Part shown: one piece after another, positions 1-18,660 of the stretch
Layout of the letters: the number at the start of each line of letters is the position of its first letter
Position numbering within the stretch: position 1 is the stretch's first letter
DNA from: Aquificota bacterium
GTDB lineage: Bacteria > Aquificota > Aquificia > Aquificales > Hydrogenothermaceae
DNA length: 64,000 bases
NCBI GenBank assembly: GCA_013153635.1
Contig: JAADDZ010000009.1
Span: forward strand, 29,967 to 93,966
Reading direction: 5' to 3'
Notes under the pieces: generated by a model
Seen by the model: only the letters and a program-made list of their open reading frames with translations
Database searches by the model: none
Told to the model about the DNA's origin: nothing
Program-made: the position numbers and the translations under genes

Positions 1-1857
1 AATATCGACGTTATATTAGATGTAATAGATACCCAAAATTTTGAGAAAAATTTCTTTCTCACTACCCAACTATTAGAATTTGAAAAACCAACAGTGATAG
101 TCCTTAATATATATGATGAAGCCGAGAGAAAGGGGATAAATGTTGACATTGAATCTTTAGAAGAAATCCTAAATGTAAAAGTAGTTAAAACAGTAGCAAG
201 AAAAGGAATAGGAATAGAAAAAGTTCTAGATGCAATTATAGAAGCTTATGAGAAAAATTTAACCCCCTCAATAAGATACGAATCTAAAATAGAAGAAGCA
301 TTTTCCAAACTGGAGAAACTTTTAGGTAAAAAATTAACAAAACATCAAGCTATTAAAATCTTATTAACTGGTACAGGGGACAAAGAGCTAGATAAACAGA
401 TAGAAAAAATAAGAAAAGAGCTAGAAAAATTCTATGGAGAAAAAATAGAGGATATTATAAAAGATGAGAGATTTGGTTTTGCCCACGGTGTAGCAAAAAA
501 AATTATAAAAAAAGAAAAAGAACAAAAATACGACATTACAGAGATATTAGATACTTTTTTACTTCACAAGTATATAGGACTTGGACTTTACATATTTATA
601 ATGTTCCTCCTATTTAAAATAGCTTTTGACTTTTCTGCACCTTTGATGGATTGGTTAGATGGATTTTTAATAAACTTTGTATCTCCGTTAATTGTTAATA
701 CCCTCCAGACATTACACGCTTCACAAACCTTGATAAACTTTTTCACAGAGGCAGTGATAGGAGGAGTAGGTTTTGTTCTAACATTTGTTCCTTTGATATT
801 TGTCTTATTTTTTCTGATGACGTTTTTAGAGATGTCAGGGTATCTTCCTAGGATAGCTGTACTTATGGATAGATTCATGGAGAAATTAGGACTACACGGA
901 AGTATGGTAATCCCTCTCATGTTAGGATTTGGCTGTAATGTACCAGCTATAATGGCTACCAAAGCGATAGAGGACAAAAGGGATAAATTTATAGTTATTA
1001 TGATGATACCCTTTATGAGCTGTCCAGCTAGATTGATAGTATTTGCATTTTTTGCCTCTGTTTTTTTCGAAAATCCAGTGTTAATAATAATGGGGCTGTA
1101 CCTATTAGGGATAGTGGTAGGTTTTATAACAGCGTTTTTCCTAAAAAAAACAGTCTTTAAAGGGAATCTTACCCATTTTGCCCTTGAACTTCCACCTTAC
1201 AGGATACCTACACTAAAAGCTCTTATATCAGTTACATGGATACATACAAAAGGGTTTATATACAGAGCAGGAACTATAATATTTGCTATATCTATAGTAG
1301 TATGGGGTCTTTTGAACCTCCCGTTAGGAATAAAAGACCAGTCCCAAAGTTATGCCGCAAAAATAGGACAGACTTTAGTACCAATTTTTGAACCTTTAGG
1401 GATAAACGATTGGAGAGCAACCGCATCACTAATCCCAGCATTCTTAGCTAGAGAGATAGCCCTTAGTTCATTAGGAACTATGTACTATGCAGAGATAAAA
1501 GAAGAAACCCAAACTGTTCCTTTAGATATAAAAGAGCAGTTAATAGACCAAACAAAAAATCTTTTCATATCCTTAAAAAAAGCCTTCCTCTCTATTTTTT
1601 CATTAAAGATAAAAGCTTTTGAGATAGCAAAAGACGAATTTGAAACATTAAGAAAAGTTATAAAAAATCATTTTACACCTCTTTCAGCACTTTCTTATAT
1701 GATACTTTTACTTATATATACTTCTTGTATTGCCACTGTAGCTGTTATGATGCAAGAGTTAGGAAAAAAATATGCACTTTTATTTTTACTATATAGTTTT
1801 GTATTAGCATGGATAATCGCTTTTACTGTATACAATGCAGGAAAAATAATTATGTGA
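1..1857 (+). CDS. feoB: Ferrous iron transporter FeoB (5' end outside window)
   Basis: Frame 1 is open from nt 1 (NIDVILDVIDTQNFEKNFFLT...), which is the tail of the G domain. It is followed by a helical domain and a polytopic membrane region with the GFGCNVPAIMATK gate motif. The listed ORF 94..1857 starts only at an internal Met. Confidence 0.9.
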   Translation, partial: NIDVILDVIDTQNFEKNFFLTTQLLEFEKPTVIVLNIYDEAERKGINVDIESLEEILNVKVVKTVARKGIGIEKVLDAIIEAYEKNLTPSIRYESKIEEAFSKLEKLLGKKLTKHQAIKILLTGTGDKELDKQIEKIRKELEKFYGEKIEDIIKDERFGFAHGVAKKIIKKEKEQKYDITEILDTFLLHKYIGLGLYIFIMFLLFKIAFDFSAPLMDWLDGFLINFVSPLIVNTLQTLHASQTLINFFTEAVIGGVGFVLTFVPLIFVLFFLMTFLEMSGYLPRIAVLMDRFMEKLGLHGSMVIPLMLGFGCNVPAIMATKAIEDKRDKFIVIMMIPFMSCPARLIVFAFFASVFFENPVLIIMGLYLLGIVVGFITAFFLKKTVFKGNLTHFALELPPYRIPTLKALISVTWIHTKGFIYRAGTIIFAISIVVWGLLNLPLGIKDQSQSYAAKIGQTLVPIFEPLGINDWRATASLIPAFLAREIALSSLGTMYYAEIKEETQTVPLDIKEQLIDQTKNLFISLKKAFLSIFSLKIKAFEIAKDEFETLRKVIKNHFTPLSALSYMILLLIYTSCIATVAVMMQELGKKYALLFLLYSFVLAWIIAFTVYNAGKIIM

Positions 1858-1864
1858 GGTTAAG

Positions 1865-2626
1865 ATGGAAAAGAAAAAATGGAGAACCGCGGTAAGTTGG
1901 CACTTTGATAAAGAAGCATACGTTAGAGGCTATAAACTCAAAGATATGATAGATAGATTAAATTTTACCCAAGCGATATATCTTGTCTTAACAGGAGAAT
2001 TACCAAACGAAAGACAACAGAGAATGATGGACGCTATATTAGTAACAATGATAGAACACTCCATCGCACCTCCATCTGTGATAGCCGCAAGAGCTGTTAT
2101 CAGTGGAGGAAATCCACTACACGTAGGAGTAGGAGCAGGAGTACTAGCGTTTGGGAAAGTTCACGGAGGAGCCCTTGAAGATGCTATGAGATTCTTACAA
2201 GAAAATGTAGATAACCCACCAGACCAAGTAGTAAAAACGTATCTTCAGCAAGGAAAGAGAATCCCCGGCTATGGTCACAGATATTACAAAGAAGAAGACC
2301 CAAGAACAGAAAAGCTCCTCTCTATAGCCAAAGAACAGGGCTATTTTGGGAAATACTGTAGATTTGCAGTAGAAATAGAAAAACAGATAGAAAAACAAAA
2401 AAGAAAAAAACTCGTTCTCAATGTAGATGGAGCAGTAGCCGCTGTCGCTTCAGAACTAGGTTTTGATTGGAAAATAGGAGAAGGTTTATGGATAATAGGT
2501 AGAATCCCCGGACTAGTTGCCCATACATACGAAGAATACACAATGGAAAAACCTTTTTCAAAAAGGTTAGACGAAGAAAAAGAAGTAGAGTATATAGGCT
2601 CTCCCCCAAGAGACTTAAACAAATAA
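1865..2626 (+). CDS. Short citrate-synthase-family protein, citryl-CoA lyase-like
   Basis: 253 aa. Carries citrate synthase catalytic blocks (GKVHGGA, IPGYGHRYY, LNVDG) but lacks the large N-terminal part of true citrate synthases. Size and motifs fit the citryl-CoA lyase type known from Aquificae reductive TCA. Confidence 0.7.
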   Translation: MEKKKWRTAVSWHFDKEAYVRGYKLKDMIDRLNFTQAIYLVLTGELPNERQQRMMDAILVTMIEHSIAPPSVIAARAVISGGNPLHVGVGAGVLAFGKVHGGALEDAMRFLQENVDNPPDQVVKTYLQQGKRIPGYGHRYYKEEDPRTEKLLSIAKEQGYFGKYCRFAVEIEKQIEKQKRKKLVLNVDGAVAAVASELGFDWKIGEGLWIIGRIPGLVAHTYEEYTMEKPFSKRLDEEKEVEYIGSPPRDLNK

Positions 2627-2637
2627 GGTAACAACTC

Positions 2638-4647
2638 TTGGAAAATAAAACAGTTAAAAAAAACAAAAAAAAGAGAAACATTCTAATAGCGATAGTAGTT
2701 CTCTTTGTGTTTATCATAGGAAATGTATACATATATGGGAAATTATCAAAAGTAGAAGAAGGTATATACAACCCATACGCTTTTTTAATAATTATCAATA
2801 TAAACGTTGTATTCTTTTTAACTATTCTTGCTCTTACACTTAGGTACTTTATAAAGCTCTTCTTTGAAGAAAGTAAATCAAGAGGGAAACTTAGAAAAAA
2901 ACTCACTGTAATATTACTATCCTTAGTGATTATTCCATCAATGATAATATCTATAGCCTCTATAAGCTTAATTTCAAATGCCACAAATATATGGTTCAGT
3001 GGGAAAGTAGAAGAAGCCCTAAAAACAATAGATGACATCTTAGAAAAAAACATAAAAGAATATGTCCATATGTGTGATGCAGTATCGAAATTAGTACTAT
3101 ATGAAAAAATCCACCCCCAAAAGATAATCAGATACTTTGAACTAAACTCAATAGTTATAATAAAAAACGGAAAAAAATCTACATATGGAAAACCTTTAAG
3201 CTCAATTTCCTACAAAGACCTCATAAACAAAAACTATATAATCTTCTACATACAAGACAAAGCATACCTTAGATACATAAAAAAAGATAACGGAACAATA
3301 GTAATCATAGATAAAAAACTCCCAGACTTCCTATCAAAAAAGAACAAAGAAGTAAAATCTATACTAAAACTATACTCCCAATTTAGATACTATAAAAACC
3401 CAATACGAATAGGTTATATACTCACCATGCTAATCATAACAATGTTCATAATTCTAGCCGCAATATGGTTTAGTCACTACATTGTAAAAAATCTAACCTA
3501 TCCATTAGAACAACTGGCAGAAGCCGCAAAAAGACTAGCAAAAGGTAATCTCAATGTAAGAGTCAACATAACCTCAAAAGACGAAATAGGAATACTCATA
3601 GAAGAATTCAATCACATGGTAGAACAACTTCAAAGCCTATACAAACAACTAGAAGTAAAAAATAAAGAACTCCAATATAGCAACCAGTATCTAGAAACCA
3701 TATTAGAGACAGCAAAAACAGGAGTTATCTTTTCTGACAAAGAAGGTAAAATCCAAAAAATAAACAGTGCCGCACTAAAAATATTAGGAACAGATAAAAA
3801 ACAAGTAGTAGGGAAAGACATTATAGAATTTCTCAAAGAACTAGGCTTAGACCCAAAAGACTTAGAAAAAGGTTCCCGAGTTCAATACAACGGAAAAATA
3901 CTCCTTATGAAACTGACAAAAATCCAAGGTACCAAAAAAGGATATGTACTAGTTATAGATGACATAACAAATGTAGTTCACGCCGAAAAAATATTAGCAT
4001 GGAAAGAGATAGCCCAAAGAATAGCTCATGAGATAAAAAATCCTCTAACACCCATACGCCTATCAGCAGAAAGGATAATCATACAGCACCAACGAAACAA
4101 CCCAAACTTCCCAAAAATACTTGAAAAAGCAACCAATATAATACTAAAAGAGGTAGACTATCTATCGAACCTAGTAAGAGAATTTAATCAATTTGCCTCG
4201 ATACAAGACAAATTAAAAAAAGAAAAATTCAGCCTAAATCAACTCCTACAAGAACTAAAAGATAGCTATGAAACCACAGACTTTAAAGTAGAAATAGAAG
4301 CAGAAAAAGAATTTACCATTTTTGGAGATAAAACCCTTATCAGACAAGCCCTAGCTAACCTTATTCAAAACAGTTACGAAGCAACAGAAGGTCAAAAAGA
4401 AAGGTGGGTAAAGATAAAAGTGTATCAAATTGATGATAAATTAGTAATAGAAGTAATAGATAATGGAGCAGGTATTTCCAAAGAAGATTTGGAAAAAATC
4501 TTCTCCCCTTATTTTTCAAAAAAAGTAAAAGGAAGTGGATTAGGTCTTTCTATAACCAAAGAAATAATAGAACTACACCAAGGAACAATAAAAGCTGTAA
4601 ATTCAGAAAAAGGAGCCCATTTTATAATAGAGCTTCCATTAAAATAA
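2638..4647 (+). CDS. Membrane sensor histidine kinase (NtrY-like: TM-HAMP-PAS-HisKA-HATPase)
   Basis: TTG start. N-terminal TM helices, HAMP-like segment (LAEAAKRLAKGNLNVRV), PAS segment, H-box HEIKNPLTPI, and N/G boxes (NLIQNSYEA, DNGAGI, GSGLGLS). No response regulator gene is adjacent. Confidence 0.85.
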   Translation: MENKTVKKNKKKRNILIAIVVLFVFIIGNVYIYGKLSKVEEGIYNPYAFLIIININVVFFLTILALTLRYFIKLFFEESKSRGKLRKKLTVILLSLVIIPSMIISIASISLISNATNIWFSGKVEEALKTIDDILEKNIKEYVHMCDAVSKLVLYEKIHPQKIIRYFELNSIVIIKNGKKSTYGKPLSSISYKDLINKNYIIFYIQDKAYLRYIKKDNGTIVIIDKKLPDFLSKKNKEVKSILKLYSQFRYYKNPIRIGYILTMLIITMFIILAAIWFSHYIVKNLTYPLEQLAEAAKRLAKGNLNVRVNITSKDEIGILIEEFNHMVEQLQSLYKQLEVKNKELQYSNQYLETILETAKTGVIFSDKEGKIQKINSAALKILGTDKKQVVGKDIIEFLKELGLDPKDLEKGSRVQYNGKILLMKLTKIQGTKKGYVLVIDDITNVVHAEKILAWKEIAQRIAHEIKNPLTPIRLSAERIIIQHQRNNPNFPKILEKATNIILKEVDYLSNLVREFNQFASIQDKLKKEKFSLNQLLQELKDSYETTDFKVEIEAEKEFTIFGDKTLIRQALANLIQNSYEATEGQKERWVKIKVYQIDDKLVIEVIDNGAGISKEDLEKIFSPYFSKKVKGSGLGLSITKEIIELHQGTIKAVNSEKGAHFIIELPLK

Positions 4648-4950
4648 GCATTATTCCTTTTAGACATATTGAAATTTTATTTTCTTTGGTTTTACAATTA
4701 TGGAATGCATTTGAGAATTAGAATATTAAAACCCCCTTATAAGAAGACCCAAAGGAAGTTAAGACTTGTCAACCTAGACAAATTGATATATTATCTATCA
4801 GTTAGGATATATTTATATGCGCATATGGATTTTAAAATGTTTAATTTAAAAAAAAGAAAACTTTTAAATAAGTTGCTTCCCGTCAGAAAAAAACACCCCA
4901 CTTTATACAAAAGCTACAACCTTTTAGAAAATAAAACAGGAGGTATATCC

Positions 4951-5922
4951 ATGAGAAAAATACTATCAACCGCAGTTTTAGGTGTTGCCGCTCTATCATT
5001 AGCAATACCAATGACTGCTGAAGCTAAAAAAGAAAGAAAATCACCACCAGCTCCATTCCTTATCTGGGTAGATGATGCTAAACCTCTCGTAGGAAATGCA
5101 GATATAAGGTTTATATGTAGTGATGGTGAGAAAAAATGTGAAAAACATATCCCAGGTTCAGCTATAACTTCAGCTCACGACTTACATTACCTTAAAGACA
5201 TAAAAGAATGTAACGGACTACCTATGTGTAAAGAAAGAGCAGAAGAGTTCATAGGAAAAGAGTTAGGAGTAAGTAATGATATGACTGCTATAGCTTACGA
5301 TGACGGTAGAGGACCAAACGCATCAGGAGTATGGTACTTCCTATATCTATACGGGTTAGATGCAGACAAAGGGCAAACAAAAATGCTAGATGGTGGACTA
5401 GCAACTTGGGAAGCTAAAGGTTACCCCTTAGAAACTGGACACCCAAAAGTTGAGCCTAAAACATTCAAAGCGAATATAAGATGGGACATCTTAGCTACCA
5501 AAGAAGAAGTACTAAAGGCTATAAAAGACAAGAAAAACTACATAATACTCGACGCAAGAAGATTCCAAGAGTATGTAGGTAAAGCTCTACTAAAAGCTGA
5601 ATACGAGCCGGGAAAAGAGATACAAGTTAAAAGAGGTGGACATATACCCGGAGCTGTGTTCTTCGAATGGAAGAAAGTCGCAGGAAACCCTGCTGGAAAG
5701 CCCGGAAGACCTTTATTCAAACCACTGAAAAAACTCAAAAAATACTTTACAAAAATCGGTGTAACTCCAGAAAAAACTGTTATCACATATTGCCACGTAG
5801 GTACAGGTAGAGGTTCATTCGTATTCGCCGCATTAAAACTAATCGGACATGAAAAAGCTAAAGTGTATGTAGGTTCTTGGGACGAATGGGGTAACGACCC
5901 ATCACTTCCAATCGAAAAATAA
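4951..5922 (+). CDS. Secreted tandem-rhodanese sulfurtransferase (thiosulfate sulfurtransferase-like)
   Basis: ATG at 4951 is preceded by AGGAGG and starts a signal peptide (MRKILSTAVLGVAALSLAIPMTAEA). Two rhodanese domains; the C-terminal one carries the active loop CHVGTGRGS. The listed 4669 start only adds an unprotein-like extension. Confidence 0.8.
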   Translation: MRKILSTAVLGVAALSLAIPMTAEAKKERKSPPAPFLIWVDDAKPLVGNADIRFICSDGEKKCEKHIPGSAITSAHDLHYLKDIKECNGLPMCKERAEEFIGKELGVSNDMTAIAYDDGRGPNASGVWYFLYLYGLDADKGQTKMLDGGLATWEAKGYPLETGHPKVEPKTFKANIRWDILATKEEVLKAIKDKKNYIILDARRFQEYVGKALLKAEYEPGKEIQVKRGGHIPGAVFFEWKKVAGNPAGKPGRPLFKPLKKLKKYFTKIGVTPEKTVITYCHVGTGRGSFVFAALKLIGHEKAKVYVGSWDEWGNDPSLPIEK

Positions 5923-5969: not shown

Positions 5970-7097
5970 ATGGAACACACACATGCGTTAATAATGGGAA
6001 TAATCACAGGAGCTCTTTTTGGAATAGTCCTACATAAAGTAGGAGCTATAAGATACTCAAGAGTCGAAGGAATGCTCTTACTAAGAGACCTAAAAATCAT
6101 GAAATTCGCCTTTATGGGAATAGCTACCGCATCAATAATCTACGGTTTGACCCATATACTTGGTTTAGCAGAAGCCCTAAATATCCACCCAAGAGTACTT
6201 CCATACATGGGAATAGCCCACCTAATTGGAGGTTTCTTGTTTGGTATAGCAATGGCTTCAGCTGGTTTTTGTCCCGGTACATGTGTAGCAAGGGTAGGTG
6301 CAGGAAAATGGTTTGCGGCGGCTGGAGTGATAGGATTGGTACTAGGAATAATAATCTACAGTATGATACAGCCATCACTAGTAGAAGCTGGAATATTAGG
6401 GCAGAAAGAGAAAATAACCTTGTACGGTCTACTAGGGATACCTTATGGTGTTTTAGCAGTAGTATGGGGAATAGCATTTATAATATTCACCATAATCGCA
6501 GACTGGTTTGACCCAGCTAAAAAATATGAACAAAAAGAAAATAAAAGCTTATTTCAAGCTATAAGAGGAGAGTGGCACTGGTTACCATCAGGTATCTTTG
6601 CAGGATTAATAATTACATGGGCAACTATGCAAGGAGAGTACTTAGGATTTTCTGGAGCTACCTTAGCTTTAGTTGGTTGGATAGCTCACTCAATAGGTCA
6701 CCCTTTACAGATTGTTCCAAACATAAACGAAACTATTATGTGGCATACAGGTTTGATAATAGGAGTATTACCCGGAGCATTTTTAAGTGCAATTCTTTCA
6801 AAAACATTCAAATTTGACGCAGTTCCTCCTCCTTTTGCAGTAGCAGTTACTCCAATACCTTGGGTTAGATTAGTACTTGTATTCTTTGCAGGCATATTTT
6901 TAGCCCTTGGGGCAATGATTGGAGGTGGTTGTACAACAGGAGCATTCCTTTCAGCATATCCAACTCTATCAGTAGGACCAATGGCTATGTCTGCAACGTA
7001 TTTTGCCATTGGAGTACTAACTGCAAATCTCATATATTTCGGTAGATGGAGCAGATTTGTACAAGCCAAAAAAGCGGCAGACGAGGTTTATGATTAA
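5970..7097 (+). CDS. YeeE/YedE family sulfur-compound (thiosulfate) transport membrane protein
   Basis: 375 aa, polytopic. Two conserved Cys-containing loops typical of YeeE/YedE (SAGFCPGTC and GGGCTTGAF). GGAGGG RBS upstream. Confidence 0.8.
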   Translation: MEHTHALIMGIITGALFGIVLHKVGAIRYSRVEGMLLLRDLKIMKFAFMGIATASIIYGLTHILGLAEALNIHPRVLPYMGIAHLIGGFLFGIAMASAGFCPGTCVARVGAGKWFAAAGVIGLVLGIIIYSMIQPSLVEAGILGQKEKITLYGLLGIPYGVLAVVWGIAFIIFTIIADWFDPAKKYEQKENKSLFQAIRGEWHWLPSGIFAGLIITWATMQGEYLGFSGATLALVGWIAHSIGHPLQIVPNINETIMWHTGLIIGVLPGAFLSAILSKTFKFDAVPPPFAVAVTPIPWVRLVLVFFAGIFLALGAMIGGGCTTGAFLSAYPTLSVGPMAMSATYFAIGVLTANLIYFGRWSRFVQAKKAADEVYD

Positions 7098-7119: not shown

Positions 7120-7257
7120 ATGAGTATGATAGAGAGGGTTCTATATTGGTTAGCAATAGTTATACTTATTATTGGACTTATCGGACTAAAAACCCAAATC
7201 TCTGAATTAGAGAAAAAAACCAAGCAAGTTCAAACAGAACTCCAAGAAGGAGGTTGA
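7120..7257 (+). CDS. Unlisted 45-aa single-pass membrane mini-protein
   Basis: ATG 7120 follows AGAGGTGGAAAG. The product MSMIERVLYWLAIVILIIGLIGLKTQISELEKKTKQVQTELQEGG has one TM helix and a charged tail. Its last codons contain the GGAGG RBS of the next gene. It is below the length cut-off of the ORF track. Confidence 0.4.
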   Translation: MSMIERVLYWLAIVILIIGLIGLKTQISELEKKTKQVQTELQEGG

Positions 7258-7262
7258 TTATC

Positions 7263-7757
7263 ATGAATCCAAAAATAGAAAGAGCCATATACATAGGGCT
7301 TATTGTAGTTCTAGCTGGTTTACTTGTAAGTTTTGGGAAAAAAGAGATAGAACTCCAAAAACAGATACCAGTTACAGCAGAAGAGCTTTACAAAAAATTA
7401 GCCAATCCTAACATAAACATTCAGATAATAGATGTGAGACCCTATGAACCAGAAGACGAAGATTACGAAGATGAGTATCTCTACTATACAGATATTCACC
7501 TACCGGGAGCTATTCCTCTTCCAGACTGCGATGAATCTAAAGCTCCAGAAGAAGCTCTAGACCAGATAAACCCATACGCACCAACTATCATAGTATCAAA
7601 AGATGGGGACCCAGAAATATTCAAGAAATGTGCGAAAAAATTTAAAATAGCTCAAAACTTAGAAGGTGGAATAGAAGCATGGGACGATGCTGGTCTTCCT
7701 ACAGAAGACGGAGAGTATGAACCACCAAAAGCAGGTGGCGGAGGTGGTTGTTTATAA
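7263..7757 (+). CDS. Membrane-anchored rhodanese-like protein without catalytic-loop Cys, with a C-terminal GGGGGCL tail
   Basis: ATG 7263 lies 9 nt after GGAGG (the listed TTG 7254 is less likely). N-terminal TM anchor (AIYIGLIVVLAGLLVSF). Rhodanese blocks IIDVRP... and NLEGGIEAWDDAGLP. The loop position reads IIVSKDGDPE with no Cys. The protein ends ...PPKAGGGGGCL. Confidence 0.7.
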   Translation: MNPKIERAIYIGLIVVLAGLLVSFGKKEIELQKQIPVTAEELYKKLANPNINIQIIDVRPYEPEDEDYEDEYLYYTDIHLPGAIPLPDCDESKAPEEALDQINPYAPTIIVSKDGDPEIFKKCAKKFKIAQNLEGGIEAWDDAGLPTEDGEYEPPKAGGGGGCL

Positions 7758-7762
7758 CAAGT

Positions 7763-7792
7763 AGGGTGGTCAGCCACCCTATAATTTTCTTT
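7763..7792 (+). terminator. Hairpin, weak terminator or attenuator before the molybdoenzyme genes
   Basis: AGGGTGG-tcag-CCACCCT followed by ATAATTTTCTTT, an imperfect U-tract. Confidence 0.45.
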
Positions 7793-7825: not shown

Positions 7826-10753
7826 ATGGCTCTTTCAAGAAGGGACTTTTTGAAAGCCCTTAGCGCGGCGGGAGCAGGGATAACCTTAGGAGGAAATGCT
7901 TCATTTGCCAAAGAAGCAGTATGGGTAGAAGACCCAAGAAGCTCTTATCCTAACACTTCATATACAGAAAACTTATATAGAAAAGAGTTTGCCTACACTT
8001 ATGGAAAAAAAGAAGAACACGGAACAGCTTATCACTGTGTAAATTGTCAAGGGAACTGTGCTTGGGATGTATGGGTAGACAGTGGTATAGTAACAAGGGA
8101 GAATCAAGTAGCAAACTATACACCAATAAACCCAAAAATTCCAGATTTTAACCCTAGAGGGTGTAACAAAGGAGTACAGCACTCCCAAATTATGTATGAA
8201 AAAGATAGAGTTTTATACCCTTTAAAAAGAGTAGGAGAAAGAGGGTCTGGTCAATGGAAAAGAATAACATGGGACGAAGCAGTAACAGAAATAGCCCAAA
8301 ATATATATAAAACGATGTTAGAGAAGGGACCAGAAGGTTTATATATCCATGTAGGTTCAGGAATGCTTACTGAAGCAAGAGCCGCTTCAGGTAAAAGGTT
8401 AGGTACACTTCTTGGAGCGGTAAGACCTTACATAGCCTCATATGTAGGAGATATGTTCCAAGGAGTATCAGTAGTTTATGGAGAAGGAAATATAGGTTGT
8501 TCTTGGGACTTTCAGTATGTTACAGATGTTCAAGTGTACTGGGGAATGGACCCAAACAAAACAAGAATCCCAGATGCCCACTTTGTATGGGAAGGAAAAT
8601 ACAACGGTTCAAAAGTTATAGTTATAGCACCAGAATTCAATGCTACTGCTACTCATGCAGACCTGTGGATACCTGTAAAAGCAGGATACGATACATTTTT
8701 AGCAATGGCAGTTATAAACGAAATAATACAGAAAAAAATGTATAAAGAAGGATTTGTAAAGGTATTTACAGACCTTCCTTTCTTGGTAAGATTAGACGAT
8801 AAGAAACTCCTTAGAATGTCAGATATAGATATAGAAAATCCTTCAGCAGAGTTTGATGAAGAAATTTATAAAGTTTTTGAAGAAAAATCAGAAGGAAAAG
8901 AATTTGAACCAGAAGCATGTTTCTTCTGCTGGAATACAAAAACAAATAAACTAACATTGATGCCGGGTACAGAAGGTTGCCCGATACCAACTCTTAGATT
9001 AAAAGATGTAGGTTGGGATATAGACCCTGCATTAGAAGGGACTTGGGAAGTTACACTAAAAGATGGAACAAAAGTAAAAGTTACTACAGTGTTTGAACTT
9101 CTAAAAAAAGAAGCTGAAAAATTTTCAGCAGAAAAAACATGGAAACTCACAGGAGTCCACCCTACAGTAGTAGAACAGTTAGCAAAAGACATGGCATTAA
9201 ACAAAGTAGTTGAGTTAAATGTTGGATTTACCCTTGGTAAATACTTTAATGGACTTTTAGCACATAGAGCGGTTGCATCAATACCCGGTCTAATTGGGAA
9301 ATTAGGACCTTACGGTGGACTGAACACAGAAAACGAATGGGCAATATCAGGCATGGGCAAACTGTCTGGGTTTGCTGGAAAATACATGTTTAGATTTGCA
9401 TCAGGTTTTGTAAGTGAGTTTGTCTTAGGTAATGTATTCAAAGATGCAGAAAAACTATACGATGAAGAAGATGTTAAAAGAGCAACTGGATTATCAAAAG
9501 ACGAATATTTCAAAAGAGTAAAGGAAACCTTAGATAACTTTGGAACAGACGAAAAATGGAAAGAAAATCTGCACAAAAAAGATGGAAAACCTTACTGGAA
9601 TACAGTAGAAACATTTTTAATCTTTGCAGATTCTAGATTCAGAAGAAACAAAGGTACAACTTATAAAGAAGCTTTCCTAAAAAAAGCTAAATTCTTTGCC
9701 TATGTAGACTTTAGAATGAACTCCACCGCCCAATATGCTGACATCGTTCTACCAGCGAAATCTCACTATGAAGTTTGGGACTTGAGAACAAATCCCGGTT
9801 ATCATAGATATGCTAATCTAGCTCAACCACCGTCAAATCTAAAGCCTGTAGGAGAAGCAAAATCAGAATGGGAAATCTGTACACTTATAGTAGAAAAACT
9901 ACAGGAAATTGCACTAAAGAACTTTGAAGAAGCAAAGAAAAAAGGAGATAGCAATCCCGAAAGATTTATAAAAATACCAGACCCAACTCACAGTAAAACA
10001 GGATACAGAGAACTAGATAAATTAGTAGAAGAGTACACGTTAGGTGGAAAATTAAGAACCGATAAAGATGCAGTTGAGCTAGCACTTGAAAGTGTAGACC
10101 AGTTTAAACCAAACACCATAGAATCTATGAGAAAAAGAGGCGGATTCTTGATGTTAAATGATAAAGCTGGAAAAACCTCACCTCTTTATCCTGACAAACC
10201 TTACAGCTCCTTTGAAAATAACCTATTTTTATTTGAAAGATTTGAAACCCTATCTGGAAGGCTAACTTACTATGTAGACCACGAATTATGGATAGAATTT
10301 GGAGCGGCTCTCCCAACAGCAAAAGAGCCGATAAGACCTAAAAGGTATCCATTTATCCTAATGTCTCCTCACGCTAGATGGTCAATACACTCAACATACA
10401 AAACATCAAAAATACTCCTTAGACTACAAAGAGGAAAGCCATACATAATGATAAATCCAGAAATTGCTAAGAAAAAAGGAATAAAAGATGGAGATGAAGT
10501 AAAAATATTTAATGCCCTTGGTGAATTTTATGCCATGGCAAAACTCTATCCATCTGCTCCAAAAGATGCAATTATTATAGAGCATGGTTGGGAACCTTTC
10601 TTCTTCAAGAACAATAAGTGTCACAATGAAGTGGTAGGAGACATGCTAAATCTTCTAGAAATGTCAGACGGTTGGGGACACTTAAAATTTGGTGGAAATT
10701 GGGACGGAAACCAACATGCATTTGAAACATCAGTAGATATAGAAAAAGCATAA
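7826..10753 (+). CDS. Tat-exported type II DMSO-reductase-family molybdopterin oxidoreductase, alpha subunit (substrate unknown)
   Basis: Twin-arginine signal (MALSRRDFLKALSAAGAG). FS0 motif of the H-x3-C-x3-C type (YHCVNCQGNCAWDVW ... NPRGCNKG) as in the NarG/SerA/EbdA/DdhA group. 975 aa. Confidence 0.85.
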   Translation: MALSRRDFLKALSAAGAGITLGGNASFAKEAVWVEDPRSSYPNTSYTENLYRKEFAYTYGKKEEHGTAYHCVNCQGNCAWDVWVDSGIVTRENQVANYTPINPKIPDFNPRGCNKGVQHSQIMYEKDRVLYPLKRVGERGSGQWKRITWDEAVTEIAQNIYKTMLEKGPEGLYIHVGSGMLTEARAASGKRLGTLLGAVRPYIASYVGDMFQGVSVVYGEGNIGCSWDFQYVTDVQVYWGMDPNKTRIPDAHFVWEGKYNGSKVIVIAPEFNATATHADLWIPVKAGYDTFLAMAVINEIIQKKMYKEGFVKVFTDLPFLVRLDDKKLLRMSDIDIENPSAEFDEEIYKVFEEKSEGKEFEPEACFFCWNTKTNKLTLMPGTEGCPIPTLRLKDVGWDIDPALEGTWEVTLKDGTKVKVTTVFELLKKEAEKFSAEKTWKLTGVHPTVVEQLAKDMALNKVVELNVGFTLGKYFNGLLAHRAVASIPGLIGKLGPYGGLNTENEWAISGMGKLSGFAGKYMFRFASGFVSEFVLGNVFKDAEKLYDEEDVKRATGLSKDEYFKRVKETLDNFGTDEKWKENLHKKDGKPYWNTVETFLIFADSRFRRNKGTTYKEAFLKKAKFFAYVDFRMNSTAQYADIVLPAKSHYEVWDLRTNPGYHRYANLAQPPSNLKPVGEAKSEWEICTLIVEKLQEIALKNFEEAKKKGDSNPERFIKIPDPTHSKTGYRELDKLVEEYTLGGKLRTDKDAVELALESVDQFKPNTIESMRKRGGFLMLNDKAGKTSPLYPDKPYSSFENNLFLFERFETLSGRLTYYVDHELWIEFGAALPTAKEPIRPKRYPFILMSPHARWSIHSTYKTSKILLRLQRGKPYIMINPEIAKKKGIKDGDEVKIFNALGEFYAMAKLYPSAPKDAIIIEHGWEPFFFKNNKCHNEVVGDMLNLLEMSDGWGHLKFGGNWDGNQHAFETSVDIEKA

Positions 10754-10767
10754 AAAGGAGGTAAACA

Positions 10768-11880
10768 ATGTCAAAAAGACAATTAGCAATGGTAATGGAT
10801 TTAAATAAATGTATAGGTTGCCAGACCTGTACAGTTGCCTGCAAAACCCAATGGACTAACAGAAATGGTAGAGAATATATGTATTGGAACAATGTAGAAA
10901 CAATGCCCGGAGAAGGTTACCCTAGAGGTTGGATGGAAGCAGGTGGAGGATTCGATGAACAAGGAAATCTGCAAGATGGAGTGATTCCAGACTTAGTACA
11001 TGATTACGGAGTGCCATGGGATTACAACCATGATGAACTATTTGAAATGGACTATCTAAAACCAGATGGAGACCCAGTTTGGGGTCCTAACTGGGACGAA
11101 GATGTAGGAGCAGGAGATTGGCCTAATTCTTACTATTTCTATCTTCCAAGGATATGTAACCACTGTTCAAACCCCGGTTGTTTAGCCGCATGTCCAAGAG
11201 AAGCCATATTCAAAAGAGAACAAGATGGAATAGTTCTTGTAGACCTTGATAGATGTCAAGGGTATAGATACTGTATAGCAGGTTGTCCTTACAAAAAGAT
11301 TTACTTCAACCCAAAGCTTTCAAAGTCAGAAAAATGTATATTCTGTTTCCCAAGAATAGAAAGAGGTCTTCCTCCAGCTTGCGCACATCAATGTGTAGGA
11401 AGAATAAGATGGGTAGGCTTTTTAGATGATGAAGAAGGACAGATATACAAACTAGTTCACAAATATAAAGTAGCTCTACCATTAAGACCAGATTTTGGTA
11501 CTCAACCAAATGTATACTATGTTCCTCCAGTACTTAGCCCACCAAAATTTGATGATGAAGGAAAACTAATAGAAGGAGAAATTACAGGAAGAGTTCCAAT
11601 CGAATTTTTAGAAAAACTCTTTGGACCAGAAGTTCATAACGCTATAAAAACTCTAAAAGAAGAGATGGAAAAAAGAAAAAACGGAGAAGAATCAGAGCTA
11701 ATGGACATACTTATCGCATACAGTCATGCAGATATGTTTAGACTAGATGAAAAATACTATCAGGATTTAGCATCAGAAAAAGGATTAAAAGGTACAGAGT
11801 TCTTCAAAATCATTGACCACAGATACATTGCAGGAGCTAATACAAATAAGGAAGAAGTAAAGATATACTTCGAAAAATAA
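10768..11880 (+). CDS. Iron-sulfur beta subunit (NarH/SerB/EbdB-like, four clusters)
   Basis: Four Cys groups: CIGCQTCTVAC, CNHCSNPGCLAACP, CQGYRYCIAGCP, CIFCFPR...C..CVGR. 370 aa. Immediately follows alpha with its own RBS. Confidence 0.85.
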   Translation: MSKRQLAMVMDLNKCIGCQTCTVACKTQWTNRNGREYMYWNNVETMPGEGYPRGWMEAGGGFDEQGNLQDGVIPDLVHDYGVPWDYNHDELFEMDYLKPDGDPVWGPNWDEDVGAGDWPNSYYFYLPRICNHCSNPGCLAACPREAIFKREQDGIVLVDLDRCQGYRYCIAGCPYKKIYFNPKLSKSEKCIFCFPRIERGLPPACAHQCVGRIRWVGFLDDEEGQIYKLVHKYKVALPLRPDFGTQPNVYYVPPVLSPPKFDDEGKLIEGEITGRVPIEFLEKLFGPEVHNAIKTLKEEMEKRKNGEESELMDILIAYSHADMFRLDEKYYQDLASEKGLKGTEFFKIIDHRYIAGANTNKEEVKIYFEK

Positions 11881-11933
11881 AATTGAGGGGAGAAACTCCC
11901 CTTGTTAACAATATAGCGAAGGAGGAAAAAAGA

Positions 11934-13124
11934 ATGAAAAACTTGGTAAAAACAGCTCTTCTTGGAGTTGTTTCTACATCACTGATTATTAATGCATCAA
12001 AAGCAGATATTAAAACCTTTTTCAAATACGAAGTTCTACCCTCTAAACAGATAAGTCAATCTGTACCGTCAGACCCAAGAGATGAGTTATGGAGTATGGT
12101 TCCGGGGAAATACGTCTTCTTTTATCCTCAAATATCTGTAAGATTAAATGATGCTGATGCTAACAGAGTAATTCCTAAAAAGCGCCTTCAAAAAGCTCTA
12201 GTTAAAGTCGTTTATAACAGTGAAAACATAGCTGTTTATATAAGATGGAAAGATAGAACCCCTTCTATCCAACCAGTTTATACAACAAAAGCCTTTGGAG
12301 ATGGCATAAGTGTAGAATTTCCAAATGATTTTGGAGCAGGAAAAACACTTCCGTATGTAGGTATGGGAGACTTAAAACACCCAGTAACAGTTTATTTACA
12401 AAAAACGGTAGCTGGGAAAGATTATGAAAAAACATTTATATCAGAAGGATTTGGTACCTTAACAGAGATTACAGAAAACGGAGTATCCATGGAAATGGAT
12501 TACGATAAAGCTAAAAGAGAGTGGATAGCAGTTATAAAAAGACCTTTAAAAACCAAAAATAGTGACTTAAGAGCAGGATTAGTACCTATAGCGTTTGCTA
12601 TATGGAACGGCTCTCAACAGGAAAGAGATGGAAATAAATCTCTATCTAGATGGAAATTTATAAGATTAAAAAGCTACAAAATAGATAAAGAATATCTAGC
12701 CTATATCTCATGGGGAGATATGATTCATAAAGAAGCTGACCCAAACAGAGGGAAAAAACTAACAATCCAAAATGGGTGTAATGCATGTCATATATATGAC
12801 GACCAGAGAACAGCACCTTTAGATATGGCTCCAGACCTTTCTAACATTGGAGGTATCGCCCATGCTCCATATCTTAAAGAGTCATTAGTAGACCCAAACG
12901 ATGTGATAATAAGAAATCTTAATCCAAATAGACATTACAATAAATTTGCCCAACCAGACAAAAACGGTGCATATCCAAATAATGACATGTACACATGGTA
13001 TATAAAAACTCCTGATGGAAAAATACAGTCTAAGATGCCTTCTTTTAGTCATCTATCAGAACAAGATATAAAAGACATAATTGCATATTTAAAAACGTTA
13101 AGAAACTGGAGAAACTTTAAGTAA
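11934..13124 (+). CDS. Gamma subunit: EbdC/SerC/DdhC-like haem-b domain fused to a C-terminal mono-haem cytochrome c
   Basis: ATG 11934 follows GGAGGA and starts a signal peptide (MKNLVKTALLGVVSTSLIINASKA). Central region matches the pattern of type II enzyme gamma subunits (GDGISVEF, YVGMGD, AFAIWNGSQQERDGNKSLSRW). The C-terminal about 130 aa carries CNACH plus a distal Met region. Confidence 0.7.
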   Translation: MKNLVKTALLGVVSTSLIINASKADIKTFFKYEVLPSKQISQSVPSDPRDELWSMVPGKYVFFYPQISVRLNDADANRVIPKKRLQKALVKVVYNSENIAVYIRWKDRTPSIQPVYTTKAFGDGISVEFPNDFGAGKTLPYVGMGDLKHPVTVYLQKTVAGKDYEKTFISEGFGTLTEITENGVSMEMDYDKAKREWIAVIKRPLKTKNSDLRAGLVPIAFAIWNGSQQERDGNKSLSRWKFIRLKSYKIDKEYLAYISWGDMIHKEADPNRGKKLTIQNGCNACHIYDDQRTAPLDMAPDLSNIGGIAHAPYLKESLVDPNDVIIRNLNPNRHYNKFAQPDKNGAYPNNDMYTWYIKTPDGKIQSKMPSFSHLSEQDIKDIIAYLKTLRNWRNFK

Positions 13125-13138
13125 AAAGGAGGCAAAAG

Positions 13139-13588
13139 ATGAAAATAATGAAAAAACTTTTGATTTCACTATTATGGTTAGCTTTTTTAACTAATGTCCC
13201 TTTAAATCAAGCTATTGCCCAAGAAGAAACCCAAGAAGCAACTTCAGATGAAGAATTAGAAGAAGTAGAGATTTACAGCGGAGTGATTACTGCAAAATCC
13301 TGTGCAGAAAAAGCTCAAGAGACAGGAGAGTTTGAAATCCTAGCTAACTGCCCTCCTATAGAAGCGGCAAAATCTGGTTATGTTATATATGATGTTACCG
13401 AAAACAAATTTTATGTGCCAAAGCTAGGTAAAATATATCTCTTTGAACTAGATGAAGGGTTTGGCGGTAGTATAGATATTACCGGAGTTATTGTAGGAGA
13501 AACTGAAGACGGAATTCCTATAATAGACCCTGAAGAATATGAAATAACTCCAAAACCAAAACCGGGATTCTTCAAAGGTTGTTTATAA
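13139..13588 (+). CDS. Secreted acidic protein of unknown function ending in KGCL
   Basis: AGGAGG RBS. Sec signal peptide (LAFLTNVPLNQAIA|QEE). Acidic linker, internal Cys pair (SCAEKA, ANCPP). C-terminus PGFFKGCL. No family recognised. Confidence 0.6.
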   Translation: MKIMKKLLISLLWLAFLTNVPLNQAIAQEETQEATSDEELEEVEIYSGVITAKSCAEKAQETGEFEILANCPPIEAAKSGYVIYDVTENKFYVPKLGKIYLFELDEGFGGSIDITGVIVGETEDGIPIIDPEEYEITPKPKPGFFKGCL

Positions 13589-13592
13589 CATA

Positions 13593-13616
13593 TGGGGCGC
13601 TAATGCCCCATTTTTA
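13593..13616 (+). terminator. Rho-independent terminator
   Basis: TGGGGC-gctaat-GCCCCA followed by TTTTTAT. Confidence 0.7.
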
Positions 13617-13781
13617 TGTTTTAAATCTTTACATTCTCCTATCAACGTTCTTCTTTATTCTATTTAATCTCTTTATAAATTTATTTATAATTTCTATACT
13701 TAAGTACAAAAATGTAGATATTGTAAATTCTATAAATATGTAGTAAAAATTTAAGTAGCAAATATAAAAAGGAGGGTTCTT

Positions 13782-14417
13782 ATGAGATTAGGTTTTTTGG
13801 TAGATTTGAGTAGGTGTATGGGGTGCATGGCTTGTGCAGTGTCTTGTAAAGCAGAGAATAATGTTCCTCTAGAGAGCTGGAGACTAAGAGTTAAATATAT
13901 AGACCAAGGAGAGTTTCCAGAAACAAAAAGACATTATGTTCCCCTTAGATGTAACCATTGTGAAAATGCACCTTGCGAAAGGATATGTCCTGTATCAGCA
14001 CTTCACTATCTCCCAAATGGAATTGTAAATGTAGACCATACAAGATGTATAGGCTGTGCATCGTGTATGATGGCTTGTCCATACAATGCCATATATATAG
14101 ACCCTCTTACAAATTCAGCTGATAAATGTACCTACTGCGCTCATAGGATAGAAGTTGGGTTAATGCCTGCATGTGTTGTAGCATGCCCTACACATGCCAA
14201 TATTTTTGGAGACCTTGATGACCCAGAGAGCGAAATATCCAAATATCTTCAAGAACATAGAGATGTGATGGTTAGGAAACCAGAATTAAATACAAAACCG
14301 AAACATTTTTATGTGAGAGGTTCTACTGTTGCACTTGACCCTCTTGCTTCAGAAAGACCAGAAGGGTTTACCCTGTTTACAGAAGTAAAATTCTTAGAAC
14401 ATATAGGAGGGCATTAA
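13782..14417 (+). CDS. 4Fe-4S ferredoxin-type subunit (TtrB/PsrB/NrfC-like)
   Basis: 211 aa with four CxxCxxC(xxxC)P-type groups: CMGCMACAVSC, CNHCENAPCERICP, CIGCASCMMACP, CTYCAHR...C..CP. Confidence 0.85.
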   Translation: MRLGFLVDLSRCMGCMACAVSCKAENNVPLESWRLRVKYIDQGEFPETKRHYVPLRCNHCENAPCERICPVSALHYLPNGIVNVDHTRCIGCASCMMACPYNAIYIDPLTNSADKCTYCAHRIEVGLMPACVVACPTHANIFGDLDDPESEISKYLQEHRDVMVRKPELNTKPKHFYVRGSTVALDPLASERPEGFTLFTEVKFLEHIGGH

Positions 14418-14418
14418 A

Positions 14419-15300
14419 ATGTTGGGAGCAGAAGTAACCTTTGATGTGGCACTGCCAAAAGTAGTGTGGGGGTGGCTCGTTTCTACTAATATGTGGGCAA
14501 AGAGTATATCTACAGGAGCGTTCTTTGTTGGACTTTATTTTATAAAAAAATATCCAGACCAAGATGCATTTTTTAGAAAGTGGTTGCCAATATTAGGACT
14601 TATTTTTATTGGAATTACATTACTAGTTACTATATTAGACCTTCACCATATGTTTAGATTTTGGAAAATATTTTTATTTGCTCATTTTACTTCAGCAGTT
14701 ACATTAGGAGCTTGGGTAGTATCTGCTTATGTATTGATACTTCTCATAGCTTTTTGGTCTTGGGTCACAGGTAACAGAAAACTCTTTGATAGAGTAGTTA
14801 TTCCCGGATTTATATTCGCATTTTTCTCTACTATTTATACAGCTGGAATATTAGGTCAATCTACAGGAAGAGAAGTATGGATATTTTCAGCAGAGATGAT
14901 TTCTATGCTCCTTAGTGCTACTTTAGCAGGTTCAGCGGCTTATCTATTAATAGGTTCTATCTATGGAAGTTTAAATGAAAAGATGAAAAAAGAGCTTGGA
15001 TATATACTTTTTGGAAGTGCAGGTTTACTTGCGGCGATGTTTATCGGAGAACTTGTATTTGCAAAAATGCACAGTGAATATGCAGAAAAAGTTGTAGAAA
15101 TATTGGCATTTGGCGAAGTAGCCCCTTGGTTCTGGGGAGGAATGTTCTTAGCATTTATCGTACCTATGGTTTTAGTTGGAATAGCTACAGAAAAGAGAAA
15201 ATATGAGTATGCACTATTAGGCTCTATTAGTGCGCTTGTCGGACTTTGGCTTATAAAACATGCATGGCTAATAGCTCCTCAATCATTACCATTAAGTTAA
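14419..15300 (+). CDS. NrfD/PsrC/TtrC-type integral membrane quinol-interacting subunit
   Basis: 293 aa with about 8 predicted TM helices. Starts 1 nt after the stop of the FeS subunit and lies between the B and A subunits. Confidence 0.75.
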   Translation: MLGAEVTFDVALPKVVWGWLVSTNMWAKSISTGAFFVGLYFIKKYPDQDAFFRKWLPILGLIFIGITLLVTILDLHHMFRFWKIFLFAHFTSAVTLGAWVVSAYVLILLIAFWSWVTGNRKLFDRVVIPGFIFAFFSTIYTAGILGQSTGREVWIFSAEMISMLLSATLAGSAAYLLIGSIYGSLNEKMKKELGYILFGSAGLLAAMFIGELVFAKMHSEYAEKVVEILAFGEVAPWFWGGMFLAFIVPMVLVGIATEKRKYEYALLGSISALVGLWLIKHAWLIAPQSLPLS

Positions 15301-15319
15301 TCAAGGAGGGAGATAAAAT

Positions 15320-18586: not shown

Positions 18587-18598
18587 TATAATTCTTGA

Positions 18599-18623
18599 GG
18601 GGGCTAAAAGCCCCTTTTTATTT
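18599..18623 (+). terminator. Terminator-like hairpin
   Basis: GGGGC-taaaa-GCCCC followed by TTTTTATTT. A chaperone gene still follows 37 nt later. Confidence 0.6.
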
Positions 18624-18660
18624 AAAATTTCTATTGTAGTTTTAGATTAAAGGAGAAAAG

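Follow-up and report, generated by a model that had tools for sequence, protein, structure and literature searches.

What can be the function of a rhodanese-fold protein that has no cysteine in its catalytic loop and carries one as the penultimate residue of a glycine-rich tail? The question is raised by the gene at positions 7263–7757 (hereafter the target) of a 64,000-nucleotide stretch of DNA from an Aquificota bacterium of the family Hydrogenothermaceae (assembly GCA_013153635.1, contig JAADDZ010000009.1, positions 29,967–93,966 of the forward strand; the whole stretch analysed is called the window). Its product is proposed to be a swinging-arm cysteine carrier on a new scaffold, with a selenocysteine (Sec) form, encoded in an uncharacterised operon. 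The gene module to which it belongs is, as we infer, a sulfur- or selenium-handling one, with a YeeE channel and a molybdenum (Mo) enzyme of the periplasm at its centre.

The open reading frame (ORF) of the target starts with ATG at 7263, with AGGAGG 8 nt before it, and its 3' end reads ggt tgt tta TAA, closing at 7757; the protein terminates in PPKAGGGGGCL. A preliminary description of the DNA had claimed a rhodanese fold and a catalytic loop without Cys, and both claims hold. The Pfam Rhodanese family (PF00581) matches residues 38–142 with 36.9 bits (cut-off 22.2), the AlphaFold2 (AF2) model built with 34 homologues as input has a confident α/β core (mean predicted local distance difference test score, pLDDT, 87.8), and the top Foldseek matches in PDB are all rhodanese domains (SseA, BH2092, Alr3790, YgaP, Sud), with E values down to 1e-5. 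In the phmmer alignment, TIIVS112KDGD of the target lies opposite 'VVVFCKTAA' of Wolinella Sud, and Ser112 shares a column with the only Cys of that stretch, which we take to be the catalytic Cys of Sud. Across the 34 aligned homologues this column holds Ser or Gly and never Cys, and in more distant relatives it holds Thr. None of the 34 has a CX5R loop, the loop being acidic or Gly-rich and without Arg. The loop Cys by which catalytic rhodaneses and sulfurtransferases are recognised, placed after the central β-strand in the context CX5R or CX4-5[R/T], is missing from the target. A catalytic Cys concealed by misalignment is ruled out, as the profile, PDB and 34-sequence alignments all give Ser or Gly. 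The target belongs to the rhodanese superfamily by fold, without the catalytic loop Cys.

Target proteins of the Persephonella type have an acidic, Tyr-rich insertion, YEPEDEDYEDEYLYY, in the rhodanese domain (residues 61–76, nt 7443–7490), which is shorter in the Sulfurihydrogenibium type and missing from the Myxococcota homologues. Two cysteines of the domain, Cys89 (PDCD, nt 7527–7529) and Cys123 (KKCAKK, nt 7629–7631), are near-invariant in the main clade of the target, and both are absent from the five members of the Sec-holding clade that were aligned; a rough regular-expression count gives both in 82 sequences, neither in 11 and a mixed state in 11. This pattern would fit a structural disulfide, and hence an oxidising compartment.

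The flexible Gly-rich arm with a penultimate Cys, also proposed in the preliminary description, is borne out by the model and by the orthologues. Residues 158–164 have pLDDT below 50, as against more than 90 on the core, and Cys163 of 164 takes the place that defines arms of the DsrC/TusE type, a penultimate Cys on a flexible C-terminal extension. The last five residues, GGGCL, are invariant in alignment A1, whose members share as little as 37% identity with the window protein. Among 5.8 billion proteins, a word-indexed search returned 76 homologues of the target, and 75 of them end in GCL, the sole exception being a 103-residue fragment. The family is small: only 40 matches (24 at E ≤ 1e-10) came from an exhaustive HMMER scan that covered 1.84 billion cluster representatives. 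Scanning GTDB with one genome per species identified 38 target loci, in Hydrogenothermaceae (Persephonella, Sulfurihydrogenibium yellowstonense and Hydrogenothermus), in Myxococcota (Anaeromyxobacteraceae and Archangium) and in two metagenome-assembled genomes (MAGs) labelled Pseudomonadota; the GCL end is found in all 38, and in 42/42 Cys-type copies of related loci. The family also occurs in a Nitrospinae MAG (locus L051).

The window has 89 ORFs that start with ATG and encode 60 or more residues, and only 7263–7757 and 13139–13588 end in CL. The latter encodes a protein of 149 residues with a signal-peptide-like N-terminus and the C-terminus KPGFFKGCL, so the earlier remark that the same G-C-L ending recurs on a secreted protein was correct. 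Two Cys, C55 and C71 (in 'CPP'), are conserved in this second family, and its end, PKPKPG(F/A)FKGCL, is invariant. GCL terminates 77/85 of the homologues and FKGCL 33/33 of the copies in related loci, the homologues without GCL being either fragments or a paralogue whose Cys-rich tail is of another kind. AF2 gives a β-barrel with inserted helices (pLDDT 81). No PDB structure matches it in Foldseek at E <0.1, the weak OB-fold-like matches having E ≥0.14, and membership in a known family is ruled out by the lack of any Pfam or NCBIfam family above its cut-off. A chance likeness of the two C-termini is excluded by conservation across phyla and by the paralogue, which lies outside the module and is without the tail. 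This paralogue (L054 748–1221; P0150, P0153, P0160) is encoded beside ATP synthase genes, and its Cys-rich tail reads …KTCEEFCCSKKRYYINMWKQ.

The most distant relatives of the target in the exhaustive search (P0098, P0102, P0106, P0108) appear to stop at the Gly before the Cys. In their DNA the apparent stop is TGA, followed by a Leu codon (CTC or CTG) and then by the true stop. An in-frame TGA at the tail Cys codon is present in six distinct metagenomic sequence types of the target (L004, L005, L006–8, L009–10, L052 and L053; gene ends in Table 1). A GC-rich hairpin with a G-containing apical loop lies 10–20 nt after each UGA of the six types, which is the position expected of a bacterial selenocysteine insertion sequence (SECIS). 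The 149-residue family has one such type, in the Nitrospinae MAG (L051 5549–5902), where the gene ends FFKG-TGA-CTG-TGA and is followed by the hairpin GGCCCC-GUGC-GGGGCC; SelB is encoded 6 kb away on the same contig. An in-frame UGA aligned with the Cys of homologues, by which selenoproteins are recognised, is found therefore in six target types and one 149-residue type. In L051 the 149-residue protein has Sec and the target Cys, and in L004 the reverse. A profile search of the Sec-holding clade gave eight clusters at 90% identity that end at the said Gly and four sister clusters that end in GCL, thus Sec and Cys forms interleave.

Where Sec and Cys exchange at one residue, bioinformatics conventionally takes the position to be catalytic or redox-active. 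Such a pair speaks much more strongly than conservation of the tail by itself, and its presence in both tail families predicts that the tail residue is reactive. Two unrelated folds have, by this analysis of sequences, one terminal motif, G-(C/U)-L-COOH, and putative Sec forms are known for both. The carrier arm like that of SoxY, which the preliminary description had proposed, gains much support from the replacement of Cys by Sec in several lineages and in both families. A review of prokaryotic selenoproteins (2026) gives five rhodanese-like Sec forms, with the motifs UxxS, UxxG, CxU and UxxxxU, and the terminal G-U-L is absent from these five (PMC13188914). No NCBIfam model reaches its cut-off with the target (best 15 bits vs 115); among the rhodanese selenoprotein models, NF041203 gives 15.1 bits (cut-off 115) and TsoB (NF045694) no match.

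The YeeE gene of some loci is likewise cut by an in-frame TGA (L004 9146–9148, L006 951–953, L051 7149–7151), which falls exactly on the first Cys of the conserved G(F/L)-C-PGTC motif (in the window YeeE, 'AGFCPGTC'); a hairpin in the coding region, CGGCC-AGGUU-GGCCG, follows this TGA. The split gene looks like a candidate Sec-YeeE, with Sec at what seems, by motif position, the site equivalent to Cys91. The YeeE motif listed in the selenoprotein review is GUxSG (PMC13188914), which fits the other conserved site of YeeE, GGGCT[T/S]G.

The module has the order two-domain rhodanese (rhod2), YeeE, small transmembrane (TM) peptide where present, target, MoA, MoB, MoC, 149-residue protein (Table 1). 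From Aquificota to Myxococcota, all loci that extend far enough to show this order have it (the 38 GTDB loci and metagenome contigs). The target is obligately linked to genes for a sulfurtransferase and for a sulfur channel, and in nearly all cases also to those of a periplasmic Mo enzyme. rhod2 is conserved in the module and has a signal-peptide-like N-terminus. Its longest ORF starts with TTG at 4669 (4669–5922), and the upstream 94 codons are probably untranslated because ATG 4951 gives a typical signal peptide, MRKILSTAVLGVAALSLAIPMTAEA, and a length like that of the homologues. YeeE precedes the target in every locus that covers the upstream sequence, the two being separated only by the small TM ORF where this is present. 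This ORF, too short for the usual ORF cut-off, has 42–50 codons across loci (42–45 in Myxococcota L001 and L002) and is missing from loci of the Sec-holding clade (L004, L006, L051). In the same clade the 149-residue gene is shifted to upstream of the rhodanese. A membrane-anchored TlpA/ResA-like thioredoxin with the motif WATWCP(P/T)C is encoded between target and MoA in L005 (763–969), L006 (2233–2805) and L051 (8472–9005), and L004 has a TauE gene. In L050 a distant YeeE is paired with a target-like protein that ends in DCL, with no Mo enzyme nearby, and L009 is probably alike; the association of YeeE with the target is therefore the tightest of the module. Hairpins after the target and after the 149-residue gene suggest two units, rhodanese-YeeE-peptide-target and MoABC-149-residue protein. 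The first hairpin is terminator-like and would be a terminator or attenuator between target and Mo genes, and the two hairpins may divide the cluster into sub-operons or determine the carrier:enzyme stoichiometry.

Table 1. Features of the module in the window, and 3' ends of the target genes with an in-frame TGA in related loci (AF2, AlphaFold2; TAT, twin-arginine translocation; DMSO, dimethyl sulfoxide; bisPGD, bis(pyranopterin guanine dinucleotide))
Feature	Position	Strand	Basis or sequence
Secreted two-domain rhodanese (rhod2), intact CX5R loop YCHVGTGRGS	4951..5922	+	Pfam Rhodanese 74.7 bits; NCBIfam SseA-like 101.7 bits
YeeE/TsuA-family membrane protein, Cys motifs GFCPGTC and GGGCTTG	5970..7097	+	Pfam Sulf_transp 104 bits
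Single-TM peptide of 45 residues between YeeE and target	7120..7257	+	read from sequence; homologue in 22 Hydrogenothermaceae loci
Target gene, membrane-anchored rhodanese-like protein of 164 residues, ends GGGGGCL	7263..7757	+	ORF, ribosome-binding site, Pfam, homologues
N-terminal TM helix of target, residues ~8–25 (AIYIGLIVVLAGLLVSFG), invariant Glu6 just before	7284..7337	+	AF2 helix 3–34; hydropathy
Rhodanese-fold domain of target, residues 38–142	7374..7688	+	Pfam; AF2 pLDDT >90 over most of core; Foldseek
Degenerate active-site loop SKDGDPE, Ser112 at catalytic-Cys position, no Arg	7596..7616	+	Sud alignment; column of 34 homologues
Conserved linker P146-x5-Y152-x2-P155 (LPTEDGEYEPPK) before tail	7698..7733	+	P146, Y152 and P155 invariant in alignment A1
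Flexible tail GGGGGCL; Cys163 codon TGT 7749–7751; Leu164 C-terminal	7734..7754	+	pLDDT; alignment; Sec forms
Strong hairpin and T-rich tract right after target stop	7761..7792	+	ΔG -15 kcal/mol, z -3.3; terminator scan
MoA, catalytic subunit with Mo-bisPGD, exported by TAT; type II DMSO reductase family; Mo-ligand position held by Asp209	7826..10753	+	profile, PDB match
MoB, Fe-S beta subunit	10768..11880	+	TIGR03478 529.8 bits, above 480.7 cut-off
MoC, gamma subunit, EB_dh haem-b domain fused to cytochrome c domain	11883..13124	+	Pfam EB_dh 48.4 and Cytochrom_C 41.2 bits
Secreted 149-residue protein, new fold, ends PKPKPGFFKGCL; Cys148 codon 13580–13582	13139..13588	+	homologues; AF2; no family
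Terminator-like hairpin with T-rich tail after 149-residue gene	13592..13621	+	terminator scan
Gene end, L004			GGC TGA CTC TAA
Gene end, L005			GGT TGA CTC TAG
Gene end, L006/7/8			GGA TGA CTG TGA
Gene end, L009/10			GGC TGA CTG TAA
Gene end, L052			GGG TGA CTC TAG
Gene end, L053			GGG TGA CTG TGA

MoA, which has a TAT motif, scores 802.6 bits with TIGR03479, under the cut-off of 984.75. In the PDB it comes closest to perchlorate reductase PcrA (383 bits) and ethylbenzene dehydrogenase EbdA (322 bits). 'YVGD' of MoA (Asp209) aligns with 'WYGD' of PcrA and 'DIGD' of EbdA, and the aligned Asp are presumably D170 and D223, respectively. MoC stays under the cut-off of the type II gamma profile (110.5 vs 169.85 bits). 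Judged from these scores, MoABC represents a putative divergent clade of the type II DMSO reductase family; the MopB superfamily paper makes no mention of Aquificae, rhodanese or YeeE. A dehydrogenase role of the Mo enzyme, with cytochrome c receiving its electrons, is suggested by the cytochrome c fusion and by neighbouring oxidase genes. These oxidase genes are found in four Myxococcota loci (L001, L002, L003, L037; L001 is the L037 contig), where cytochrome c, SCO1/SenC and COX2-COX1-COX3 genes follow the cluster (L001 16858–20471; L002 11579–15946) and ArsR-type regulators, one of them rhodanese-fused, stand at its head. They hint at an aa3-type oxidase as the destination of the Mo enzyme's electrons.

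The window holds a second Mo enzyme set at 13782–19296, consisting of an Fe-S subunit, an NrfD-like membrane subunit, a TAT catalytic subunit of 1088 residues and a TorD/NarJ-type chaperone. The catalytic subunit is distantly related to polysulfide reductase of Thermus (120 bits) and is far under every NCBIfam cut-off. This PsrB-NrfD-PsrA-like set with its chaperone follows the module in Aquificota, and also in L030 and L035.

The TM anchor adjoining YeeE, another claim of the preliminary description, is likewise supported: an N-terminal hydrophobic helix is found in the whole target family (103 members; mean Kyte-Doolittle hydropathy of the core 2.5), next to the YeeE gene listed in Table 1. 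In 74/103 members the N flank, with the amino terminus included, has a higher net charge than the 15 residues that follow the helix; in 25 the two are equal, and in 4 the N flank has the lower charge. By the charge-difference rule an N-in/C-out signal anchor is therefore favoured, with a periplasmic domain. The rhodanese rhod2 and the 149-residue protein (signal peptides), MoA (TAT) and the TlpA-like protein are all predicted to be periplasmic. In P0108, a member of the Sec-holding clade, no positive charge is found for about 25 residues after the helix. The domain of the target probably faces the periplasm, to judge from the charges around the helix.

The function that we consider slightly better than an even bet is that of a catalytically dead rhodanese scaffold by YeeE, with the arm G-(Cys/Sec)-Leu-COOH carrying sulfane sulfur between partners. 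The helix would fix the target in the inner membrane beside YeeE. The sole functional nucleophile of the protein would have been relocated to the flexible C-terminal arm, and this arm would bear sulfane sulfur as a persulfide (or an S-Se or Se-S adduct). Loading of the arm, for example from thiosulfate, could be performed by the secreted and intact two-domain rhodanese. The arm would then shuttle the atom among this rhodanese, the YeeE channel and the funnel of the periplasmic type II Mo enzyme, and the Cys-Leu-COOH end may dock in an anion-binding pocket of the Mo-enzyme funnel, of the YeeE vestibule or of both. The 149-residue protein would be a second, soluble carrier that docks in the same site or sites. 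The ArsR-type regulators of Myxococcota, one with a rhodanese domain, and the TauE gene of L004 add a sulfur context to this function.

Several points weigh against this carrier function or parts of it. Sulfane sulfur is a proposed cargo of Cys163, and the handled element could be Se, because rhodanese and YeeE also go with selenite/tellurite reductases and rhod2 matches ExtH with 31.6 bits. The closest solved relatives of MoA, perchlorate reductase and ethylbenzene dehydrogenase, use no protein-bound substrate. The SECIS-like hairpins are individually not significant when compared with shuffles (z about 0 for GC-rich segments of 49 nt), so that the case for Sec rests on the repeated TGA-Leu-stop pattern and on the alignment to Cys. 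Raw counts of Lys and Arg (K+R) point the opposite way to net charge, with 1.7 on the N flank and 3.3 on the C flank over the 103 members. In the window a terminator-like hairpin stands between the target and the Mo genes. YeeE/target pairs occur without a Mo enzyme, and YeeE alone may be the obligatory partner.

A bolder form of the carrier function, which is tentative and on balance improbable, is that the two folds have converged on a G-(Cys/Sec)-Leu-COOH plug which gives sulfane sulfur to the new type II clade. The enzyme would oxidise the carrier-bound sulfur and pass electrons via cytochrome c to the oxidase, the periplasmic pool of carriers would be connected with the cytoplasm through YeeE, and the whole would amount to a new carrier-dependent pathway of dissimilatory sulfur oxidation. 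If true, this pathway would be common to Hydrogenothermaceae, Anaeromyxobacteraceae and a Nitrospinae MAG, and SoxCD-like chemistry would be performed by a different molybdoenzyme family.

The points on topology and on YeeE are also those used by the strongest rival explanation, a cytoplasmic acceptor similar to YeeD. With the domain N-out/C-in, the tail Cys would take sulfur at the inner mouth of YeeE and replace the TusA-like YeeD/TsuB, and the 149-residue protein would serve the outer mouth of the pseudo-symmetric channel with the same G-C-L plug; this explanation is unlikely, if worth keeping in mind. The tightest link of the module, that of YeeE and target (adjacent or split only by the small TM ORF), persists in L050 where the Mo enzyme is lacking, the terminator-like hairpin puts the target in one group with rhod2 and YeeE, and the operon has no TusA/YeeD gene. 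YeeE itself has the candidate Sec form in the same genomes that have a Sec tail, and the K+R counts are greater on the C flank. YeeE does not function without YeeD, and SoxT1A is followed by a cytoplasmic rhodanese (PMC11073785, PMC11582611). The net-charge rule, however, favours N-in in 74/103 members, P0108 lacks positive charge in the long segment after the helix, and all other soluble parts of the module are exported. As the 149-residue protein with the identical tail is clearly secreted, the simplest explanation is that both proteins share one compartment.

Handling of selenium or metalloids would make the cluster an island for selenate/selenite respiration or detoxification, in which the tails bind Se(0), selenide or another soft metalloid from the Mo enzymes. 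Some Sulfurihydrogenibium species respire selenate or selenite, and a second, Psr-like Mo enzyme follows the module in Aquificota. The weak matches of rhod2 to ExtH, the rhodanese of selenite/tellurite operons (31.6 bits), and of YeeE to the YedE model of selenium metabolism (29 bits) point in the same direction but are far under the cut-offs (200 and 350 bits). The module is also present in S. yellowstonense, for which we know of no report of selenate respiration. The oxidase genes of Myxococcota and the cytochrome c fusion of the gamma subunit fit substrate oxidation better than selenate reduction, and this explanation is regarded as quite unlikely, even with near-C-terminal Sec families having been proposed as metal ligands (PMC13188914).

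The exchange of Sec and Cys, typical of redox-active residues (PMC13188914), would also be expected of a redox relay. The tail Cys/Sec would cycle between thiol (selenol) and mixed disulfide or selenenylsulfide, like the GCUG tail of thioredoxin reductase, and reducing equivalents would pass among the TlpA-like thioredoxin, the cysteines of YeeE and the second tail protein, for example freeing sulfide or sulfite. The TlpA/ResA-like protein encoded directly after the target in L005, L006 and L051 could be a member of such a relay, but a thioredoxin-like gene is missing from the module in most loci, that of the window among them. With its single Cys the tail has no resolving partner, and the intact sulfurtransferase and the sulfur channel point to transfer of an atom and not of electrons, which makes the relay decidedly unlikely.

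A short conserved C-terminal motif common to two unrelated proteins could also be a sorting, lipidation or cleavage signal (CAAX-like, MYXO-CTERM-like, or trimmed like the GG-CF end of QbsE, whose type of carrier is cut after GG), but this is barely credible and was rejected: one residue only follows the Cys, there is no TM or basic segment as in CTERM sorting domains and no sortase, protease or E1-like gene in the module, and the replacement of the tail Cys by Sec makes a lipid-anchor or discarded-residue role implausible.

The carrier function proposed here for the target has parallels in several known systems. SoxY, which the preliminary description gave as the only analogue, is not the closest: DsrC/TusE is nearer in tail geometry, and Sud with its partner Psr in fold and partner. 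The C-terminus of DsrC is …G-C-V-COOH. Sulfur is held by DsrC exclusively on the penultimate Cys, and its flexible C-terminal arm fills the cavity of DsrAB (PMC3397948). DsrC/TusE (TIGR03342) shares with the target the penultimate reactive Cys and the flexible arm, which in DsrC enters the substrate cavity of the partner. DsrC is, in contrast, helical and cytoplasmic, the target being a TM-anchored rhodanese fold without the second arm Cys; DsrAB is not its partner, and a Sec form exists for the target family. No DsrC/TusE model of Pfam or NCBIfam matches the target; the likeness of the tails is convergence, not homology.

SoxY is a periplasmic protein whose GGCGG tail carries sulfur, and the molybdoenzyme SoxCD is among the enzymes that process the bound sulfur. 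The Gly-flanked Cys at the extreme C-terminus is common to SoxY and the target. SoxY differs by its Ig-like fold, its partner SoxZ, the GGCGG end and the TAT signal, and SoxCD belongs to the sulfite oxidase family; the module studied here has rhodanese and OB-like folds, a G-C-L end, a type II DMSO reductase and a TM anchor on the target. No Pfam or NCBIfam match to SoxY or SoxZ was found for the target or its neighbours, and sox genes are absent from the module. Sud, a rhodanese of the periplasm, passes polysulfide sulfur to the Mo-bisPGD enzyme Psr. Sud of Wolinella succinogenes (PDB 1QXN) has a single-domain rhodanese fold like that of the target, to which it gives weak sequence and fold matches; it is soluble with a canonical loop Cys, unlike the membrane-anchored target with Ser in the loop and Cys in the tail.

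YeeD/TsuB is a small Cys protein encoded beside YeeE/TsuA and needed to accept the transported sulfur species (PMC11073785). The target is encoded next to yeeE too, but YeeD/TsuB is soluble and cytoplasmic, with the TusA fold and an N-terminal Cys of the CPxP type, whereas the target has a rhodanese fold, a TM helix, its Cys/Sec at the C-terminal end and a probably periplasmic location. SoxT1A of Hyphomicrobium, which is YeeE-like, is encoded with a thiol-disulfide oxidoreductase, a 56-residue single-TM protein and a rhodanese (PMC11582611). This gene set closely parallels the module, the 45-residue peptide recalling the 56-residue TM protein Hden_0678 beside SoxT1A. The Gly-Cys-Sec-Gly arm of thioredoxin reductase and the UXX-star, KCU-star and SaoC families resemble the target in that a mobile tail bears the Sec or Cys, at a distance of one to three residues from the C-terminus. 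In this arrangement any SECIS must lie in the 3' untranslated region, because coding ends almost right after UGA. Their domains are different and the target lacks a vicinal Cys-Sec pair; none of the NCBIfam models of near-C-terminal Sec families matches it. Thus the target resembles DsrC most in tail geometry and Sud or SoxY in role, and is a member of none of these, nor of TusA/YeeD. In literature full text and family models, no description was found of the target family, the 149-residue family, the module or its Mo enzyme.

Upstream of the module the window (94–4647) encodes a FeoB fragment, a short citrate-synthase-like protein of 253 residues, which is possibly a citryl-CoA lyase as in Aquificota with the reductive tricarboxylic acid cycle, and a membrane histidine kinase (2638–4647), which may regulate the cluster. 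An Rfam scan identified no RNA family in the cluster, its sole match being a tRNA at 27868–27939.

The swinging-arm Cys carriers SoxY and DsrC are central to dissimilatory sulfur metabolism. If the target is a carrier, it would be a third and independent solution, in which the rhodanese fold gave up its own active site and the nucleophile moved to the C-terminus. The two tail families are candidate new selenoprotein families with a penultimate Sec, truncated by gene callers, and the candidate Sec form of YeeE has its site at a place different from the listed GUxSG motif. The operon of about eight genes is conserved in cultured bacteria, including Persephonella marina, Sulfurihydrogenibium, Hydrogenothermus and Hydrogenivirga, and the Sec/Cys tail marks the residue through which the substrate of the enzyme and the physiological partner of YeeE could be found.

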